Source: a virus | Lineage: Duplodnaviria > Heunggongvirae > Uroviricota > Caudoviricetes | IMG/VR virus record: IMGVR_UViG_2778261382_000003 | Reading direction: 5' to 3' (one strand) | Length of the DNA: 18,906 bases | In this document: in pieces, positions 1-14,496 of the stretch | Layout: the number at the start of each line of letters is the position of its first letter | Position numbering within the stretch: the first letter of the stretch is position 1 | Made by a program: the position numbers and the translations under genes | The notes under the pieces: model-generated | What the model saw: only the letters and a program-made list of their open reading frames with translations | Told to the model about the DNA's origin: nothing | Databases searched by the model: none

Positions 1-12
1 TATTTCCTCCTT

Positions 13-291
13 TCAGCTCCATTCCCGAAGCGGTGTTTCCAGCTCCACGACATAATCAGAGAATACAGAAACATCAAACAAGTCATCAAGAATGCGAATG
101 TTGACAAAATAACCATCATTCCGGATACAGACAGGTTCTCCCTCTTCTGTTACCCCTGTTTCTGTGTAGGTGAAACCAATTTCATCAACTAACAGTTTAT
201 TCTGGAGGTCTTCATCTTCCGCCCAGCCAAGAGATGACAGGAAGGCCTTAAACTGCAGTTTGTCATGAAACTTCAAAGTTAAATCTTTCAT
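13..291 (-). CDS. Hypothetical small acidic protein (92 aa) immediately downstream of the tail fibre gene; possible tail-fibre accessory protein, but not a recognisable lambda Tfa
   Basis: Complete ORF. Its ATG (289-291) overlaps the tail fibre stop (288-290) in an ATGA arrangement, implying translational coupling. No recognisable family motif. Confidence 0.5.
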   Translation of the reverse strand: MKDLTLKFHDKLQFKAFLSSLGWAEDEDLQNKLLVDEIGFTYTETGVTEEGEPVCIRNDGYFVNIRILDDLFDVSVFSDYVVELETPLREWS

Positions 292-2249
292 ACGACCTCT
301 TTTAATTGCCTGTCATTTAATTCTTTATGCCATATGCGGAAATTGCGAATATGGCCAAACAGATGTCGTTCTCCAGTGTTCGTCTGCCCTCCAAATCGGA
401 TATTTTTATCAGCGGTCACGCCATTATATTCACAATAAACTTTATTAACCGCTTTACCATTTGTCACCACATGAAAGTGACCATCAGCTTTTGCAATACA
501 TCCAAATGTGGTTTTCTCTGCAAATACATCTGTCGCTGCGCTATTAACATACGAGCCTGAAGGGTTTGACAGACTCATATATAACTTACCACTACCTCTG
601 TTGATTGCTGCAATTGCTGATTGCCCGGTATTGGCTGCTGCTATATCCCACACGCGGGGTGCGGCGTTTGGTGCAATATCCCAGTTTTTATGAATCTCAA
701 GTAAAAAAGTAAATGGTAACTTATAAAGATTATTTCTGGTGGGGATACTAACCAAATCACTGGCTCTTGTCGTTGCGCTGCCTCCTGAAATAATAAATGA
801 TGATACACACGGCCCATTCTCTACTTGTGGGGTGGCAAGATAAATATAGTCACCAGATACTGTTGCCCCACCCTGCTCAGGAGAATACTGTATCTGAGAG
901 CCTATTTTTAACTCACCATCAATTGCCTGAATCGTTGCCTCTGCAAAAATCCAGCCTGTGGTCTTATCCTTCCTGACTCGTGCCGTAATTCTGCCGGCAG
1001 CCCCACCTGTCATATTAATTTCAAGCGTTTGCGTATCAATGTACGCATCGCCAAGAAAAGTTGTTGCACTACCATCATACTTATCAAACCGTATACGTAA
1101 CCTTACCTGTCGTTCTGTTTTAAAACGGCATGAGGTTGTCACGTACTTGTTATCGCCTGAGACATCAACTGACTTTGTTGCAGCAATTGATGCCATATTA
1201 ATAGCCGAAGTTTGCCCAACCAGAGAATCGTTGCAGACAAACTTTCCATAAGTAAAACCAAAACTATCTGTCCCGGTTTCGGGCACATCCATGTTTGATG
1301 ACTTCCCCCAGCTGGCTGGACTTTCCGAATTGAGCATGTAGTTCGTTCTTTGTCCCTCAATAAGCAGGCCATCACACTCAAATCGCGGCTCATTAATTTC
1401 CGCCGTTTTCAGTTCGCCAGATTTGTTGATATATGTTGCCGTTGATGCGCGACTGAAATTAACCTGTTTATCACTGGCGACCTGAACCACATCGTCACCA
1501 ATAGCTATTTTTTTATAGCCCGGAGAAAAACCCGCAATCATATCCAGTGAATCGTTAAACGGTATCCACACATCAGGCAGCGGCGGCACTATATTCGCAT
1601 AGGGCTCTGCAGTCACTTCCGCTGCGACTTCTGCGCGGTCTGCCGCCTTTTCAGCCCGTGTCGCTGCCGACAGAGCCTCATCCTTTTTCTGCCCGGCCTT
1701 TGTTGCGTCTGCTGCGGCCTCCCGCGCTTTTGTGGTGGCGACTCCGGCATTTTCAGCGGCTGACTCTGCATTACGGCGGGAAGCCTCTTCACTGTCTGCG
1801 GAGGCTTCTTCTGACGCACGGGCATTTGTCTCTGAACGTTCTGCCGCTGTTGCTGCGTTTTGTGCGGCTGTTTTTGAAGAAGCTGCCGCTTTCGCGCTGT
1901 TACCTGCATTCGTCTCTGATGTTTTCGCCGCATTCCTGGACGATGCCGCTGCTGTTTCTGATTTCTTTGCTGCCGCTGCGCTCTGAGAGGCGGCTTCAGC
2001 GTTGCGTGCCACCTCTTCCACCATCTTTTCAAAACGATACAGTGCCTCCGGACGAACATCATCTTCTGTTGCAGCGCCCAGAAAATCATTCAGCGTCCCC
2101 GGCTTAGAATCCTCATACACGGTGATGGTCCCGGCATGTGAAGGCGGAAAACCTTCAACCAGCAGGATAACGCTGTACTGGCCATACTCGACATCCATGC
2201 TGTAACGTCCGGCTTCATCCGGATTTTCTGAGGCCACCGTGTTCACCAC
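288..2249 (-). CDS. stf: Side tail fibre protein (lambda Stf-like N-terminus, Ala/Ser/Thr-rich repetitive shaft, divergent C-terminal receptor-binding domain)
   Basis: N-terminal region (VNTVASENPDEAGRYSMDVEYGQYSVILLVEGFPPSHAGTITVYEDS) matches the lambda side tail fibre N-terminus from memory. Low-complexity shaft follows. C-terminus ends ...GERHLFGHIRNFRIWHKELNDRQLKE, resembling the end of LamG/concanavalin-like jelly-roll domains. The annotated start is GTG; the frame stays open upstream to about 2330 (..KPIQNCTIQLKAKRNSTTVV) without an ATG, so the true N-terminus is uncertain or truncated. Confidence 0.85.
   Translation of the reverse strand: MVNTVASENPDEAGRYSMDVEYGQYSVILLVEGFPPSHAGTITVYEDSKPGTLNDFLGAATEDDVRPEALYRFEKMVEEVARNAEAASQSAAAAKKSETAAASSRNAAKTSETNAGNSAKAAASSKTAAQNAATAAERSETNARASEEASADSEEASRRNAESAAENAGVATTKAREAAADATKAGQKKDEALSAATRAEKAADRAEVAAEVTAEPYANIVPPLPDVWIPFNDSLDMIAGFSPGYKKIAIGDDVVQVASDKQVNFSRASTATYINKSGELKTAEINEPRFECDGLLIEGQRTNYMLNSESPASWGKSSNMDVPETGTDSFGFTYGKFVCNDSLVGQTSAINMASIAATKSVDVSGDNKYVTTSCRFKTERQVRLRIRFDKYDGSATTFLGDAYIDTQTLEINMTGGAAGRITARVRKDKTTGWIFAEATIQAIDGELKIGSQIQYSPEQGGATVSGDYIYLATPQVENGPCVSSFIISGGSATTRASDLVSIPTRNNLYKLPFTFLLEIHKNWDIAPNAAPRVWDIAAANTGQSAIAAINRGSGKLYMSLSNPSGSYVNSAATDVFAEKTTFGCIAKADGHFHVVTNGKAVNKVYCEYNGVTADKNIRFGGQTNTGERHLFGHIRNFRIWHKELNDRQLKEVV
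1610..2000. repeat. Degenerate Ala/Ser/Thr/Glu-rich tandem codon repeats inside the tail fibre gene
   Basis: Translation is low-complexity (AAASSRNAAKTSETNAGNSAKAAASSKTAAQNAATAAERSETNARASEEAS...). The repetitive GC-rich DNA keeps several antisense and alternate-frame ORFs open in the six-frame track. Confidence 0.55.
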
Positions 2250-2528
2250 AACCGTGGTGCTGTTACGTTTTGCTTTGAGCTGAATGGTGCAGTTCTGTAT
2301 CGGTTTACGGCGAAGAAGAACGGAAACGCCTTAAACCGGAAAATTTTCATAAATAGCGAAAACCCGCGAGGTCGCCGCCCCGTAACCTGTTGGATCGACG
2401 GAAAGGACCCGAAAACGAGAATAATTATCACTTACAGCAAGAATCGAATCTGATCTATTATGGTGCTTGCTATTATGTGCCGGCACAAGTGCGTCGTTTA
2501 CCGTCATTTCACACAGAGGCATCATCAA

Positions 2529-2780
2529 ATGAAAATCAGAAATATTCTCGCTATCTCCCTTGCGACATCATCCTTCAGTTGCCTGGCATTTAAATCCTCG
2601 CCCAATGTGCTACCAGGACCAACGAATCAACTAACTGCGGTAGAAAGTAAAATTATCGGACATTTTTATGCCCCACACAGTACATTACCCGGAACAACCA
2701 TCACAGGGACATGTGACGCCTCCCCCGTCCCGGGATGCACCTGCCCGTTTTGTACTATGCTGCGTAGCCAAAACCGATAA
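2529..2780 (+). CDS. Hypothetical small secreted Cys-rich protein (83 aa)
   Basis: Internal ATG of track ORF 2460-2780; N-terminus MKIRNILAISLATSSFSCLA looks like a signal peptide. Lies in the junction region between bor and the tail fibre. No recognisable homology; weak call. Confidence 0.3.
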   Translation: MKIRNILAISLATSSFSCLAFKSSPNVLPGPTNQLTAVESKIIGHFYAPHSTLPGTTITGTCDASPVPGCTCPFCTMLRSQNR

Positions 2781-2841
2781 CATCCGCATTTACCTGGTAT
2801 TCCATGATGAGTTCACGCAGCGACTGATAGAGGAAGGAAAG

Positions 2842-3021
2842 ATGGTTAGTAAAAGCAAGGCGCATTGCCGCCGCATGCTGCAGGCATTGCAACAGACGAG
2901 AGCAGGTATTTTTGACCAGTTGGAAAACTGCCAGCATACTTTGCCCGAGTATATCGCCATCTCATCGGAAACCAGTGCAACTCTTATTCATCGGGTTCCA
3001 CCAGAGAAAAAGAAGAAATGA
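2842..3021 (+). CDS. Hypothetical small protein (59 aa)
   Basis: ATG at 2842 preceded by a strong Shine-Dalgarno (gaggaaggaaag ATG). An inverted repeat at about 3028-3052 follows the stop. Function unknown. Confidence 0.35.
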   Translation: MVSKSKAHCRRMLQALQQTRAGIFDQLENCQHTLPEYIAISSETSATLIHRVPPEKKKK

Positions 3022-3143
3022 ACAGTGAGGCGTTGTGTGGCATACAACGCCTTCTTCCATCATTCCTCGTCAGCCATGACAAAAATATAACCGCTGGCTC
3101 TTTCATTTTTCTCCTGCTTCCAGCCCCTCTCTATCTGGAAGCA

Positions 3144-3470
3144 TCAAGGACGTGACGGCGTAAAGATAAATTGTCTCTTCACTCCCTGACAGGGGCGATT
3201 CTTTTCAAATCGCCATTTCGCCATGGCCTTCACCACTTCATCACGAAACAAATTATGAGGCTCTGAGCGGAGAAAAACGATCCGTGTCACAGTCCCATCA
3301 GCACCAATATCGAACTTAACCTCAACCAGCCCCTTGATATAATTTGCTGCAGCATATTCCGGATATCGTGGATACACCGTCACTAATTGCCGGGGCTCAT
3401 CAGCTTTTTGCTGCGAGCATCCCACTGCCAGGACAGATAACAGAAAAAGTAGTAAAAGGCGTCTTTTCAT
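3144..3470 (-). CDS. Prophage lipoprotein with TonB C-terminal-like domain
   Basis: Start taken at the internal ATG (3468-3470) with SD agga 7 nt upstream. N-terminus MKRRLLLLFLLSVLAVGCSQQ is a signal peptide with lipobox (LAVGC). Remainder (VYPRYPEYAAANYIKGLVEVKFDIGADGTVTRIVFLRSEP..FRDEVVKAMAKWRFE) matches the TonB C-terminal domain pattern from memory. Confidence 0.6.
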   Translation of the reverse strand: MKRRLLLLFLLSVLAVGCSQQKADEPRQLVTVYPRYPEYAAANYIKGLVEVKFDIGADGTVTRIVFLRSEPHNLFRDEVVKAMAKWRFEKNRPCQGVKRQFIFTPSRP

Positions 3471-3950
3471 TTTTATTCCTACGGGTCTTATTCTGACAAT
3501 ATATCCTGTGTTCCAGACTGCCACATCACCACATCCTGTGCCATTATCTGACTCACATTACATACATCGCATCGGGATACAGTAGTAGCACTTTCTGTAA
3601 TACAGCTTCCTGTTTCTTCCACCATCGCACCGGGATAAACCCGCGAATCATTAACGCGGTAAAAACCCGGTGTGCATCGTTTTTAATTATTCCCGCACAC
3701 TCACGCAGAAGGAATTCCCCGTCGGGCTACGGTCATGGTTAATGCGGGAATACGGCGACGATACAGCGCAGCTAAAAGGGTAATGGACGGATAGACCGGT
3801 TTATTTCATTCCACAGGATTCTGAGTGTCCCCAACTTCCTCCAATAGTCTGAGCCCACCTGTGTAGTTTTAATTTTCATCAATCCATTTAACTATCGTTT
3901 AATTGTTGTCACATAGGATTCTGCCGTTTTTAACAATGCAGGATAATAAG

Positions 3951-4244
3951 ATGAAAAAAATGTTGTTTTCTGCCGCTCTGGCAATGCTTATTACAGGATG
4001 TGCTCAACAGACGTTTACTGTTGGAAACAAACCTACAGCAGTAACACCAAAGGAAACCATCACCCATCATTTCTTCGTTTCGGGAATTGGGCAGAAGAAA
4101 ACTGTCGATGCAGCAAAAATTTGTGGTGGTGCAGAAAATGTTGTTAAAACAGAAACCCAGCAAACATTCGTAAATGGATTGCTCGGTTTTATTACTTTAG
4201 GCATTTATACTCCGCTGGAAGCGCGTGTGTATTGCTCACAATAA
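3951..4244 (+). CDS. bor: Bor lipoprotein (serum-resistance, lysogenic conversion)
   Basis: 97-aa protein MKKMLFSAALAMLITGCAQQTFTV...ARVYCSQ, near-identical to lambda Bor from memory. Lipobox LITGC. RBS aggataataag ATG. Opposite strand to the lysis genes, as in lambda. Confidence 0.9.
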   Translation: MKKMLFSAALAMLITGCAQQTFTVGNKPTAVTPKETITHHFFVSGIGQKKTVDAAKICGGAENVVKTETQQTFVNGLLGFITLGIYTPLEARVYCSQ

Positions 4245-4275
4245 TTGCATGAGTTGCCCATCGATATGGGCAGCT

Positions 4276-4752
4276 CTATCTGCACTGCTCATTAATATAC
4301 TTCTGGGTTCCTTCCAGTTGTTTTTGCATAGTGATCAGCCTCTCTCTGAGGGTGAAATAATCCCGTTCAGCGGTGTCTGCCAGTCGGGGGGAGGCTGCAT
4401 TATCCACGCCGGAGGCGGTGGTGGCTTCACGCACTGACTGACAGACTGCTTTGATGTGCAACCGACGACGACCAGCGGCAACATCATCACGCAGAGCATC
4501 ATTTTCAGCTTTCGCATCAGCTAACTCCTTCGTGTATTTTGCATCGAGCGCAGCAACATCACGCTGACGCATCTGTATGTCAGTAATTGCCGCGTTCGCC
4601 AGCGTCAGTTCTCTGGCATTTTTGTCGCGCTGGGCTTTGTAGGTAATCGCGTTATCGCGGTAATGATTAACAGCCCAAGACAGGCAGACGATGATGCAGA
4701 TAACCAGAGCGGAGATAATCGCGGCAACTCTTCTCACTGATCTATCCCCCAA
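4276..4752 (-). CDS. Rz: Rz i-spanin
   Basis: Translation (..[40 protein letters not shown]...QKYINEQCR) closely matches lambda Rz. Immediately downstream of the endolysin gene; exact start codon uncertain. Confidence 0.85.
4335..4517 (-). CDS. Rz1: Rz1 o-spanin (outer-membrane lipoprotein embedded in the +1 frame of Rz)
   Basis: 60-aa ORF wholly inside Rz: [60 protein letters not shown], with lipobox and proline-rich stretch, essentially lambda Rz1. Confidence 0.85.
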
Positions 4753-6761: not shown

Positions 6762-7844
6762 ATGAAAAAATTAACAGTGGCAATTTCTGCTGTAGCTGCA
6801 TCAGTACTGATGGCGATGTCTGCTCAGGCAGCTGAAATTTATAATAAAGACAGTAACAAGCTGGATCTATACGGGAAAGTTAATGCCAAGCACTACTTCT
6901 CCTCTAATGATGCAGATGATGGTGATACTACTTATGCCCGTCTTGGCTTCAAAGGTGAAACCCAAATCAACGATCAACTGACTGGTTTCGGTCAGTGGGA
7001 ATATGAATTCAAAGGCAACCGTGCTGAATCTCAAGGTTCTTCCAAAGACAAAACCCGTCTTGCATTTGCAGGCCTGAAATTTGGTGATTACGGCTCAATC
7101 GATTACGGCCGTAACTACGGTGTAGCATACGACATCGGTGCGTGGACTGACGTCCTGCCAGAATTCGGTGGTGATACCTGGACCCAAACAGATGTGTTCA
7201 TGACTGGTCGCACTACTGGTGTTGCAACTTATCGTAACAACGACTTCTTTGGTCTGGTCGATGGCCTGAACTTTGCTGCTCAGTATCAGGGTAAAAATGA
7301 CCGCACTGACGTAACTGAAGCCAATGGTGATGGTTTCGGTTTCTCCACTACTTATGAGTATGAAGGATTCGGCGTGGGTGCAACCTATGCTAAATCAGAT
7401 CGCACTGACGGTCAGGTCGCCTATGGTAAGAGCAAATTCAATGCCTCCGGCAAAAATGCGGAAGTATGGGCTGCAGGCCTGAAATATGATGCGAACAATA
7501 TCTATCTGGCTACCACATATTCTGAAACTCAGAATATGACCGTTTTTGGTAATAACCATATTGCAAACAAAGCACAAAACTTTGAAGCAGTAGCACAATA
7601 TCAGTTTGACTTCGGTCTGCGACCATCTGTTGCTTACCTTCAGTCAAAAGGTAAAGACCTTGGTGTTCATGGTGACCGAGACTTAGTCAAGTATGTCGAT
7701 GTCGGTGCTACTTACTACTTTAATAAAAACATGTCCACTTTTGTTGATTACAAAATCAACTTAATTGACGATAGTAAGTTTACCAAAACAGCTGGTATTG
7801 ATACCGACGACATCGTCGCTGTAGGTCTGGTTTATCAGTTCTAA
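6762..7844 (+). CDS. nmpC: OmpC/OmpF-family general porin (phage Lc / NmpC-type), lysogenic-conversion moron
   Basis: 360 aa with signal peptide [23 protein letters not shown], mature start [18 protein letters not shown]-terminal ..VAVGLVYQF (terminal Phe), classic enterobacterial 16-strand porin features. Sits between Q and the holin on the opposite strand, as in DLP12 and PA-2. A long AT-rich leader lies upstream (6340-6760). Confidence 0.95.
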
Positions 7845-11885: not shown

Positions 11886-11981
11886 CAATATTATGGCTTT
11901 TTTATTTCTAAATTCAAAACTTGAAAATATTAAGATTCGCTTTTAAATCAACCCTAAACAACTGAAGATAACATCTGATAG

Positions 11982-12941
11982 TCAGCTAATTGCAAAGATA
12001 TTAAAAATAACTTTAGGGAGTGCGAAAGATGAAATAAAAAGCACAACCATAAAAATGGCATGCTTAATAAATGATGAGCTTGTAAAAAAAGCTCCTCCCT
12101 TGCTAATTCCTGCCATAAAAACAAAGATAAAGCTAATTAAGCACGACCATATCACTAACAAAACTGAGATTGACATGCTTAAAGACATATCGCGAGAAAA
12201 TACGTTTACTGAAATAGAAATGAAAGTAAAGAAAGAAGCAAATAAAGCAATGACACCCAGCATTGAGTTCCTTGCTGTAATTACTTCCGATTCAAAGCTT
12301 TTAACTTTCTCATGTATATCTTTTTCAGCATTTGATAATGTTGCATCAAATTGCTCAATCTTTGCAGTTTGCTGAGATAATGAAGACATTACCTTACCTA
12401 TTTTTCTTTTAGTATCATTAATATTCTTTTTGCTCTTATTCAACTCTTGCGAAAAATTGGTTAGTTGATCATTGATATTTTTCCAGAGGATGTTATCAAT
12501 ATCACTTTTTGTATATTTTTTTACATTCTCTTTATTAAAAGAAATTGTAGATTCAGAATTATTATTAACAAAGTAATTAGATAAAATGGCATTAGAGACA
12601 GTATTATCCATCACCGGCACAGTTGCTTTTGAACTGTATTTTATAGCTTCATGCAACATTTCTTTTTCATTAACAAAAAGAGAGGTTTTTATTAATTTTT
12701 GTGGTGCCGCGTCTTTGATGGATATACTTTCCCGCTCTTTATTTGAAGCTGTTGCAGTTTTATTATCTATCTGCAAATTACTAATTTTTTGTACCCCTCC
12801 TGTATACGTAGATGTACTATTCGATACTTGTGAATTAGAATAAAGTGAATGATGCGCAGTTCTTTTTGCCATGTCATCGTTGACTATAGCATTATTTTTT
12901 GCAGTTCTTTTTATATCCTTTTTATTATCATCCTTATTCAT
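11982..12941 (-). CDS. Hypothetical protein, 319 aa: low-complexity Ser/Thr/Asn-rich N-terminus, predicted helical / coiled-coil middle, about three C-terminal transmembrane helices; candidate membrane effector of a defence / exclusion module
   Basis: ATG at 12939-12941 with good SD (gaggtgg), 14 nt after the stop of the upstream gene. C-terminal hydrophobic segments MLGVIALFASFFTFISISVNVF, ISVLLVIWSCLISFIFVFMAGI, AIFMVVLFISSFALPKVIFNIFAI. About 27-30 percent GC against about 50 percent in flanking phage genes. Confidence 0.7.
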   Translation of the reverse strand: MNKDDNKKDIKRTAKNNAIVNDDMAKRTAHHSLYSNSQVSNSTSTYTGGVQKISNLQIDNKTATASNKERESISIKDAAPQKLIKTSLFVNEKEMLHEAIKYSSKATVPVMDNTVSNAILSNYFVNNNSESTISFNKENVKKYTKSDIDNILWKNINDQLTNFSQELNKSKKNINDTKRKIGKVMSSLSQQTAKIEQFDATLSNAEKDIHEKVKSFESEVITARNSMLGVIALFASFFTFISISVNVFSRDMSLSMSISVLLVIWSCLISFIFVFMAGISKGGAFFTSSSFIKHAIFMVVLFISSFALPKVIFNIFAIS

Positions 12942-12955
12942 TCAGCCACCTCACA

Positions 12956-13621
12956 TTACTGAATTTCATTCACTTTACTTAAAAAGGCTTTTTTTGTTTT
13001 TTCTGCGGTATATTTATCTTTAAATATAAAACTCTCGATTGTATTCACATCGATCTGTTTCACTAGCATTGGTTGTTCTCTGACAATATCATATCCTGAC
13101 ATAATCGACAAATGACAATTAAATATGGACTGCTCAAACTCGAATTTTTTATTATACATTAAATTAATATCTTCAATTATTTCGCTATCATTCTGCATGT
13201 TGTTACTAAGATAGTTTTTAACAATCTCTTTGTTTGGGTTGTTGTTTAATTCCGCCTTAACGGCCACCAAGCCTATTCTGATAATATCCTTATTGAGTTC
13301 TTTATGGATATCAACCACACTATCGAAAACTTCTTGAAACAAATGTAAGTCTACCTCTTGCTCAGAATCCATACGTTCAAAAAACAAATCACATCTCTGC
13401 AGTGAGCATTGAACTCTAAATTTATTATCTATAGAAAACAATTGGAGACGAGGAATCTCTGGTGGGGTATCCATAGGTAAAACGCCCAACATCATATTGT
13501 TTGTTAATTCAATACCTGCCTTCTTTTTAAAAGTTTGCCTAATAAAATACGACATTCCATCGAAATCGACAGTCGTTGATGAATCGTAAAAAAATACCAT
13601 TTGTAACTGTATGATTTTCAT
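12956..13621 (-). CDS. Hypothetical soluble protein, 221 aa; first gene of the AT-rich two-gene operon (candidate sensor / partner)
   Basis: ATG at 13619-13621, 152 bp after the P stop with an AT-rich promoter-like region between. Very AT-rich codon usage. No recognised motif. Confidence 0.7.
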   Translation of the reverse strand: MKIIQLQMVFFYDSSTTVDFDGMSYFIRQTFKKKAGIELTNNMMLGVLPMDTPPEIPRLQLFSIDNKFRVQCSLQRCDLFFERMDSEQEVDLHLFQEVFDSVVDIHKELNKDIIRIGLVAVKAELNNNPNKEIVKNYLSNNMQNDSEIIEDINLMYNKKFEFEQSIFNCHLSIMSGYDIVREQPMLVKQIDVNTIESFIFKDKYTAEKTKKAFLSKVNEIQ

Positions 13622-13773
13622 CCTATATTCCAGGTTTCAGCAATGTAAATTTGGCGCATTATTCTAGCTTACAACAGCAACATTTTTGAAGGGCTTTGCT
13701 AAAACTTTTATTCCCAGTGGCATTAATTTCAACCAATAGGACCTGAACAGAAAAAAACATAAAAATCAATGCA

Positions 13774-14496
13774 TTATTTCGAAATCTTTTTATATAATGC
13801 TTTTCCCCCTTTCAGCCCAAACTTAGCTTTGATTTCTGCGATCTTCGCCAGAGCCTGTGCACGATTTAGAGGCCTACCGCCCATGACAGGAAGTTGTTTT
13901 ACTGGTTCAGGTATCGCCTCACCACGGTTAATTCGCGCGGTCATACAGGTCAGCTCATCGGCAGCCTTGCGCCGTAATTCCGCGTCAGTCAACGCATTGG
14001 CCCGCATGTTCTGATACAGGTTGGTAACCAGCCAGTAGTGCGCGTTTGATTTCCACGGATAAGACTCTGCATCCGGATACAGCCCGCGCTTCCGGCAATA
14101 CTCGTAAACCATATCAACCAGCTCGCTGGCGTTTGGCAGCCCGGCGGTAACGGATGCTTCTTCCCGGCACCAGGCGACAAACTGCCCGGGTGATGGCAGG
14201 AATGGTCGATTCTGCCGACGGGCTACGCGCATTCCAGCGTTAACCTGTTCCATTGTGGTGATCCCGTTTTCCCGAAAAGCCAGCACCCACTGGCGGCGGA
14301 TTTCGTTCAGTTCATTCTGGTCACAGTTAGCCAGGCTCGCCGGGAAAGTTGCCAGTAACTGGCTGAACACACCGTTGATGATCTGCGCTACCTGCTGTAC
14401 CTGCGGCTTTTCGTCGTACTGTTCCGGCATGTTGTTGGCGATCCGACGCATCTGCTCACGGTCAAAGTTAACCATCTGTGCGGCGATGTTTTTCAT
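13774..14496 (-). CDS. P: Replication protein P (lambda P-like DnaB helicase loader)
   Basis: MKNIAAQMVNFDREQMRRIANNMPEQYDEKPQVQQVAQIINGVFSQ... is near-identical to lambda P over most of its length. ATG (14494-14496) overlaps the O stop (ATGA). The last ~10 residues (..KFGLKGGKALYKKISK) differ from lambda P as I recall it (..KFGLKGASV). Confidence 0.9.
   Translation of the reverse strand: MKNIAAQMVNFDREQMRRIANNMPEQYDEKPQVQQVAQIINGVFSQLLATFPASLANCDQNELNEIRRQWVLAFRENGITTMEQVNAGMRVARRQNRPFLPSPGQFVAWCREEASVTAGLPNASELVDMVYEYCRKRGLYPDAESYPWKSNAHYWLVTNLYQNMRANALTDAELRRKAADELTCMTARINRGEAIPEPVKQLPVMGGRPLNRAQALAKIAEIKAKFGLKGGKALYKKISK

Follow-up and report, generated by a model that had tools for sequence, protein, structure and literature searches.

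A phage-21-type side tail fibre gene truncated at a 19,026-bp deletion, and its 92-aa partner gene, in a defective lambdoid prophage

The window analysed here is a stretch of 18,906 nucleotides (nt) from a virus of the Caudoviricetes (IMG/VR record IMGVR_UViG_2778261382_000003). At its left end, the minus strand carries a 5'-truncated side tail fibre gene, stf' (288..2306), which comprises codons 15-686 of a phage-21-type stf plus the stop codon, followed by a gene for an acidic protein of 92 amino acids (aa) (13..291). Upstream of stf' are a deletion junction (2305..2307) and a remnant of left-end cos DNA. The gene bor/iss was found at 3903-4244. Between bor/iss and the fibre gene there were only a gene with a TonB_C domain and small open reading frames (ORFs), and the earlier note had correctly seen no head or tail genes there. 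Window 1-2306 had a DNA identity of 99.4% to phage 21 (OL657228), and its identity to mEp460, ev017 and Perceval exceeded 99%. The stf' product departs from phage 21 Stf at 4 of 653 residues and from Stf of an intact ST131 prophage (strain SK1144) at 1.

The truncation was mapped to the base by comparison with the intact SK1144 prophage (L003). BLAST placed window 1-2306 at L003 20001-22306 and window 2305-3280 at L003 41331-42306, leaving one gap of 19,026 bp with a 2-nt (AA) overlap at its ends. The BLAST offsets and a three-way alignment located this microhomology at 2305-2306. The breakpoints fuse cos position +74, just past cosB site R3, to stf codon 15, and the earlier proposal of a 5' end truncated at a deletion junction was thus borne out. 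The gene order in SK1144 is the TonB_C gene, a hypothetical gene, cos, nohD (small terminase), large terminase, portal, capsid, tail genes, J, stf and the 92-aa gene. The deletion removed the rest of cosB (the integration host factor site I1, R2 and R1), both terminase genes, all head and tail genes and J, together with the stf ribosome-binding site (RBS), its ATG and the codons through 14. Loss of the morphogenesis region, as the earlier note had supposed, is therefore confirmed, and the prophage is defective in that terminase, portal, capsid, tail genes, J and most of cosB are gone relative to the intact prophage. The same cos-stf junction was present in 5 of the 5,426 complete E. coli genomes, and these five were mutually 100% identical over 4.3 kb. 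The part at window 1-2306 occurred in its intact context in hundreds of complete E. coli genomes. Since five complete genomes of different sources have the junction, an assembly artefact was ruled out and the junction is a real, recent deletion. These data show a deletion of 19,026 bp by illegitimate recombination across a 2-nt microhomology.

The cos DNA kept beside stf' (2307..2380, minus strand) corresponds to left-end positions +1 to +74. On the minus strand, cosN is GGGCGGCGACCT (2369-2380) and the cosB R3 repeat is CGTTTCCGTTCTTCTTCG (2311-2328). A cosQ sequence, GGGTCCT (2404..2410, minus strand), lies 30 nt upstream of cosN and is the same as the annotated cosQ block of phage 21. All of these cos features were assigned by comparison with the phage 21 cos annotation. 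The R3 and left-end sequence of the prophage was lambda-type and diverged from phage 21 from about cos +41 on (window 2307-2380 compared with L004 1-200). The packaging and tail-fibre modules are thus mosaic, with a lambda-type cosB, yet a phage-21-like stf, sitABCD cargo and icd attachment. The remaining window contains lysis genes, a porin gene, Q, replication genes and an integrase gene, and in E. coli 19AR1724 the phage 21 neighbours also flank the window locus. The gene content and these neighbours (sitDCBA, an icd fragment and attP) identify an icd-integrated lambdoid prophage, and the locus is the right-hand late-operon remnant of an icd-integrated, sitABCD-carrying prophage of the phage 21 type.

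The ORF at 288-2249 (minus strand) encodes 653 aa from a mechanical GTG start. Upstream of this GTG, the frame runs without a stop as far as 2330, where an in-frame TAA (2331-2333) ends it. Its translation after the stop is GVSVLLRR followed by KPIQNCTIQLKAKRNSTTVVV... The earlier note had described this open frame correctly but had taken all of it as matching lambda Stf. The Stf homology starts at K15, position 2306, and 2307-2330 is cosB DNA that is in the same frame by chance. An upstream in-frame start with an RBS was sought and none was found: there was no ATG, GTG or TTG between 2330 and 2249 in the stf' frame, as had been noted before, and a Shine-Dalgarno sequence was absent before GTG 2249 and before the first ATG at 2198. 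A start and RBS of its own and a position downstream of J in the tail operon are found in the intact relatives and are missing from stf'. With neither a start nor an RBS, only part of its anchor domain and no neighbouring tail genes, stf' is almost certainly dead and is most plausibly a decaying pseudogene of recent origin. At the window locus (L001 6288-8300), the Prokaryotic Genome Annotation Pipeline (PGAP) annotated the N-terminal part as "pseudogene, missing C-terminus" and, from ATG 1541, a 417-aa "phage head spike fiber domain-containing protein". The same split was made in the intact, continuous 686-aa stf of SK1144 (L003 20288-22348), and the 417-aa coding sequence is therefore no evidence of an internal start. 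The split of the 686-aa fibre ORF in RefSeq/PGAP appears to be a systematic annotation artefact across many genomes.

The encoded fibre can be divided into five parts, all on the minus strand. The PF08400 tail-attachment domain (Pfam phage_tail_N) remains at 1956..2306 with its first 14 codons and RBS gone. It scored 161.5 bits against a cutoff of 26.6, with profile positions 35-131 of 134 in the GTG-start ORF, and the lambda-like N-terminus described earlier was supported by 74% identity to lambda Stf residues 15-158. An Ala/Ser/Glu-rich shaft follows at approximately 1605..2000. It has a low-complexity likeness to the lambda Stf shaft and gave the spurious DnaX-type matches typical of such composition. 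The C-terminal module opens with a conserved neck (1365..1592) containing PLPDVWIPFNDSL...RASTATYINKSG...NEPRFE, which is the homology boundary in all module-swapped relatives. The gene transfer agent of Rhodobacter (RcGTA) has a head-spike fibre to which the domain at 762..1364 is homologous, and a LamG/concanavalin-A-like jelly-roll domain is at 306..671. The non-lambda globular part begins at IVPPLPDVWIPFNDSL (ORF residue ~220) and spans about 435 aa (~220-653). The unlikeness of the C-terminus to lambda Stf had been recognized earlier, but its length had been put too low, at about 250 aa.

The RcGTA-like domain matched NCBIfam NF048003 (GTA_spike_fiber) with 55.9 bits against a cutoff of 36 over ORF residues 296-496. 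A family profile searched against the PDB matched RcGTA Rcc01080 with E=2e-43, covering Rcc01080 residues 44-280, and also matched a tail fibre gp17 and baseplate proteins of the Pseudomonas phages E217 and Pa193. The last ~140 profile positions matched pentraxins and the botulinum toxin Hc fragment (BoNT/D). For the terminal domain, Laminin_G_3 (PF13385) gave 24.1 bits (E=4e-5, ORF residues 527-648), which is under the gathering score of 27.6, and some homologues of the module carry precomputed PF13385 matches. An AlphaFold2 model of the module built from 53 diverse homologues was all-beta, with a pLDDT of 93.3 and a pTM of 0.90. Foldseek matched it with probability 1.0 to CBM40 (sialic-acid-binding), pentraxins and the BoNT Hc lectin-like subdomain, with target-normalised TM-scores of 0.5-0.63 for single-domain targets. 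The modelled structure and the profile matches support a LamG/concanavalin-A-like jelly roll for the end domain at the fold level, in agreement with the motif proposed in the earlier note.

The same module boundary was found in fibres with other N-termini, and in close homologues PF12571 or PF03406 replaces PF08400 (precomputed Pfam). An exhaustive search of 50%-identity representatives returned 2,865 proteins at E<=1e-3 for the module, and the full-length matches have it at the C-terminus. By these sequence comparisons, the fibre's C-terminal portion is to be regarded as a mobile module. Across ten cassettes (listed below), the neck was the most conserved sub-part (55-82% identical), and the RcGTA-like and LamG domains were hypervariable (20-90%). 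The N-terminal and shaft regions of stf had a GC content of 0.51-0.53, and the distal module together with the 92-aa gene a lower one of 0.41-0.44 (window 1-1200 compared with 1200-2400), which is consistent with a separate origin of the fibre-module and small-gene cassette. The lambda-like Escherichia phages 4A7 and Lambda_4C10 (H95/H96) matched the window stf only over 421-2306, at 98.4%, and their version of the small gene, 54% identical, was located about 2.7 kb further downstream. This points to a mosaic breakpoint within the LamG domain, to a fibre gene that is longer or to a second one, or to a combination of these.

The 92-aa gene is directly downstream of stf'; its ATG and the stf stop share the sequence ATGA, and a GAGG of its own precedes the start by 5 nt. 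The protein has a pI of 4.17, with 20 D+E against 8 K+R, is a homologue of phage 21 CPT_21_23 and matched the profile of PHROG 1361, a family of unknown function, with E=3e-42 over residues 1-91 of 92. PHROG 1361 includes 198 phage records, and 365 clusters were found in the protein collection. No Pfam match was obtained for the 92-aa protein, and 11 diverse members gave none at E<=10, including PF02413; NCBIfam gave no match, the PDB contained no sequence relative, and BLASTP gave no alignment to lambda Tfa. The acidic, coupled, non-Tfa gene product described in the earlier note is thus confirmed. A defence-system role for the 92-aa protein and for the 97-aa protein was also considered and rejected, as neither had a PADLOC match.

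The ten cassettes were those of phage 21, two prophage types, two metagenomic contigs and the phages VogelGryff (Seuratvirus), IrisVonRoten (T5-like), tunus (Warwickvirus), KarlBarth (Dhillonvirus) and JenP2 (Nonagvirus). In all ten, whichever N-terminus the fibre had, the small gene overlaps the stop of the fibre gene that carries the C-terminal module by 1 or 4 nt, so the two genes are probably translationally coupled. The small proteins of the cassettes were 85-100 aa long and 30-97% identical, and the pairing was seen across lambdoid, T5-like, Queuovirinae, Drexlerviridae and Dhillonvirus phages. Of the 5,426 E. coli genomes, 452 had the cassette, Nissle 1917 and ATCC 25922 among them. The identity of the small protein tracked that of the neck (rho 0.77) better than that of the physically adjacent LamG domain (rho 0.31). 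With its own Shine-Dalgarno sequence, the 92-aa gene in the window could be translated from Q-antiterminated late transcripts. Homologues of the small gene with up to 70% identity were also found in several unannotated GenBank "Campylobacter phage" records (59-140 kb) and in a 7.5-kb "Listeria phage" (H91, H103, H134-H137 and H140); these records are likely to have mislabelled hosts or to contain contaminating coliphage sequence.

The 92-aa protein is most likely a dedicated accessory of the fibre, acting either as an assembly chaperone or as a small structural subunit that would bind the neck. Its place directly downstream of a tail fibre gene, to which it is coupled, is also what a highly diverged member of the Tfa/Caudo_TAP family would show, but the missing PF02413 match and lambda Tfa alignment effectively refute this identity at the sequence level, and we consider it extremely improbable. 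A further explanation is that the protein is a structural adaptor on the neck or proximal fibre end, which docks a distal fibre to give branched fibres and which in lambdoids is a leftover or a cap. In IrisVonRoten, VogelGryff, JenP2, tunus, KarlBarth and the prophage or metagenome loci L007 and L016, a second fibre gene begins about 10 nt after the small gene (second-fibre genes at L021 3767-4933, L022 4789-6513, L023 3792-4529, L024 3770-4066, L025 3789-4835 and L007 5341-6369). Its product has a conserved N-terminal M(V)TKTxIPxDITxLKN motif, which may be a docking peptide for branched fibres, and in most cases a Peptidase_S74 (intramolecular chaperone) end. IrisVonRoten Gp24 was modelled by Humolli et al. 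as a distal fibre on the proximal fibre Gp22 (PMC11990801); the small gene is not discussed in that paper. A further argument is that conservation of the small protein is moderate (45-75%) and follows that of the neck, while the receptor-binding domains range from 20-90%. However, phage 21, mEp460, ev017 and the prophages L010-L013 have a well-conserved small gene and no distal fibre gene, the lambdoid gene after the small gene encodes an unrelated hydrophobic protein of 97-98 aa (PHROG 1443), and the branched fibres of the DT57C type dock without such a small protein (PMC4728585, PMC10713586). We regard the adaptor as a tentative and rather doubtful explanation. Homology of the lambdoid 97-aa downstream protein to the N-terminus of the virulent-phage distal fibres was examined and rejected, as the comparison showed none. 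On a wider view, PHROG 1361 may be an unrecognised non-Tfa accessory class that binds the neck of galectin/LamG-type distal modules, as a new fibre chaperone or as a second-fibre docking adaptor, and that lambdoids keep in a branchless form; to us the arguments for and against this are about evenly balanced. If it is true, a docking adaptor would account for the construction of branched lateral fibres in T5-like, Queuovirinae, Drexlerviridae and Dhillonvirus phages.

For stf', it could be argued that the truncated gene is still functional, as a source of a free lectin-like protein made from GTG 2249 or an internal ATG, or as a reservoir with which co-resident or superinfecting lambdoid phages could recombine. 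The frame of 2 kb is unbroken and differs at 1 aa from the intact relative, PGAP calls a coding sequence from ATG 1541, late transcription from pR' should still read through stf' as Q and the lysis genes are present, and temperate phages are known to take up tail fibre DNA from defective prophages (PMC3945230). Against this, no Shine-Dalgarno sequence precedes any candidate start, the internal start called by PGAP is an artefact that recurs in intact genes, the anchor domain is incomplete and no tail is present. An intact frame is also expected after a recent deletion, given the 100% identity of the five carriers, and is silent on selection. A functional stf' seems unlikely to us. We favour, with high confidence, the reading of the locus as a phage-21-type stf remnant at a 19,026-bp deletion, with stf' as a pseudogene and the partner gene as a fibre accessory. 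Several points weigh against parts of this reading. Low-level translation of stf' may occur from GTG 2249, ATG 2198 or the internal ATG 1541. More distant C-terminal modules (28-32% identity) occur without the small gene. The identities of the whole module and the small protein were not significantly correlated (Spearman 0.29, p=0.42, n=10 cassettes), and co-evolution of the two was rejected. The rho of 0.77 for the neck was computed over 45 pairs that are not independent, with no correction for phylogeny, and is suggestive at most. Glycan binding by the module is a prediction from homology and fold, and the experimentally resolved part of the RcGTA spike fibre, residues 2-10, does not include the part homologous to the module (PMC7296036).

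The favoured reading can be set out as a proposed sequence of roles. In the intact 686-aa fibre, the N-terminal PF08400 domain would anchor the protein to the tail tip, and would be followed by an Ala/Ser-rich trimeric shaft, the conserved neck and two beta-sandwich domains, one a homologue of the RcGTA capsule-binding spike and one LamG/concanavalin-A-like. The two distal domains are predicted to bind a surface polysaccharide (O-antigen, capsule or lipopolysaccharide) in a reversible first-contact adsorption. The RcGTA head spike fibre binds capsular polysaccharide (PMC10218006; PMC7296036), the literature presents IrisVonRoten Gp22 as a proximal fibre bearing a "galectin-like domain" (PMC11990801), and IrisVonRoten can infect K-12 with restored O16 O-antigen (PMC8594841); from these we infer that the module, by homology and modelled fold, probably binds a surface glycan for first contact. 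The acidic 92-aa protein would be cytoplasmic and the conserved companion of the module, either a chaperone or a neck-binding structural subunit. After the deletion, stf' without a start, RBS, full anchor or tail would decay as a pseudogene.

Other features of the window were also recorded. A promoter and terminator scan of window 1-4300 showed no enrichment over shuffles. An AT-rich island at window 11980-13800, just downstream of the replication-gene region, had a GC content of 0.30-0.33, compared with about 0.45-0.55 in its flanks. It contains two minus-strand ORFs, 11982-12941 (319 aa, with a hydrophobic C-terminus) and 12956-13621 (221 aa), neither of which had a significant Pfam match or a PADLOC match. 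The island could be moron or defence cargo. An intact porin gene of the OmpC/NmpC type (360 aa, window 6762-7844, plus strand; PGAP name ompC) is located between Q and the lysis cassette and is a lysogenic-conversion moron, beside iss/bor and sitABCD.

The biology of the fibre is already known at the sequence level, as the gene is annotated in phage 21 and the architecture is found in hundreds of genomes. The locus itself is a base-pair record of how a phage-21-like, sitABCD-carrying prophage turned defective in a few E. coli lineages. The fibre-module and small-gene cassette is carried by about 8% of complete E. coli genomes, among them ST131 as well as the two strains named above, and by many phages used for host-range studies and engineering. 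For receptor-binding module swaps, such as those in lambda-based delivery particles, it is necessary to know whether the 92-aa gene must accompany the module. The analysis also exposes the RefSeq/PGAP mis-annotation by which an intact fibre gene is cut into a pseudogene and a "head spike fiber" coding sequence.

Among known systems, phage 21 (OL657228.1) is the closest. It encodes a side tail fiber of 686 aa (UMO75437.1, CPT_21_22) and a hypothetical protein of 92 aa (UMO75438.1, CPT_21_23), with the same 4-nt overlap, and the 92-aa proteins are 96.7% identical. The next genes are also shared, namely those for a 97-aa putative membrane protein and sitDCBA, then the icd fragment and attP, with the same icd attachment. 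The window copy differs in that codons 1-14, the RBS and all preceding DNA back to cosB are missing, and the cosB of the window prophage is lambda-type and not phage-21-type. The earlier description of the fibre as chimeric holds relative to lambda but not as a rearrangement specific to this locus, since it is the native architecture, at full length, of the phage 21 side tail fibre and of hundreds of E. coli prophages. The genome announcement of phage 21 does not discuss the function of Stf, and no paper was found in the literature that links phage 21, the side tail fibre and sitABCD.

Lambda Stf (orf-401/orf-314) shares with the window fibre the PF08400 domain, the Ala/Ser-rich shaft and the position downstream of J. 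The C-terminal part of lambda Stf has been tied to OmpC and O16 binding. The distal ~435 aa of the window fibre are unrelated to that part, with no alignment to orf-314, and the 92-aa partner has no similarity to the 194-aa Tfa (orf-194). RcGTA Rcc01080 (GhsB) has a central beta-sandwich domain homologous to that of the window fibre and binds capsular polysaccharide at first contact (PMC10218006). Rcc01080 is a 325-aa monomer, the first 10 residues of which anchor it on the capsid-vertex pentamer, whereas the window domain is distal in a tail-anchored trimeric fibre and is accompanied by the neck and the LamG domain. The virulent siphophages IrisVonRoten (Gp22-Gp23-Gp24), VogelGryff, JenP2, tunus and KarlBarth share the C-terminal module at 45-70% identity, with 53% for the module of IrisVonRoten Gp22, and the small gene at 49-54%. 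In these phages the genes form lateral tail fibre loci, for which the O-antigen has been proposed as primary receptor (PMC8594841, PMC11990801). Some of them have other N-terminal anchors, that of IrisVonRoten being T5-type, and they carry as a third gene a distal S74-type fibre gene, which is missing in the lambdoids.

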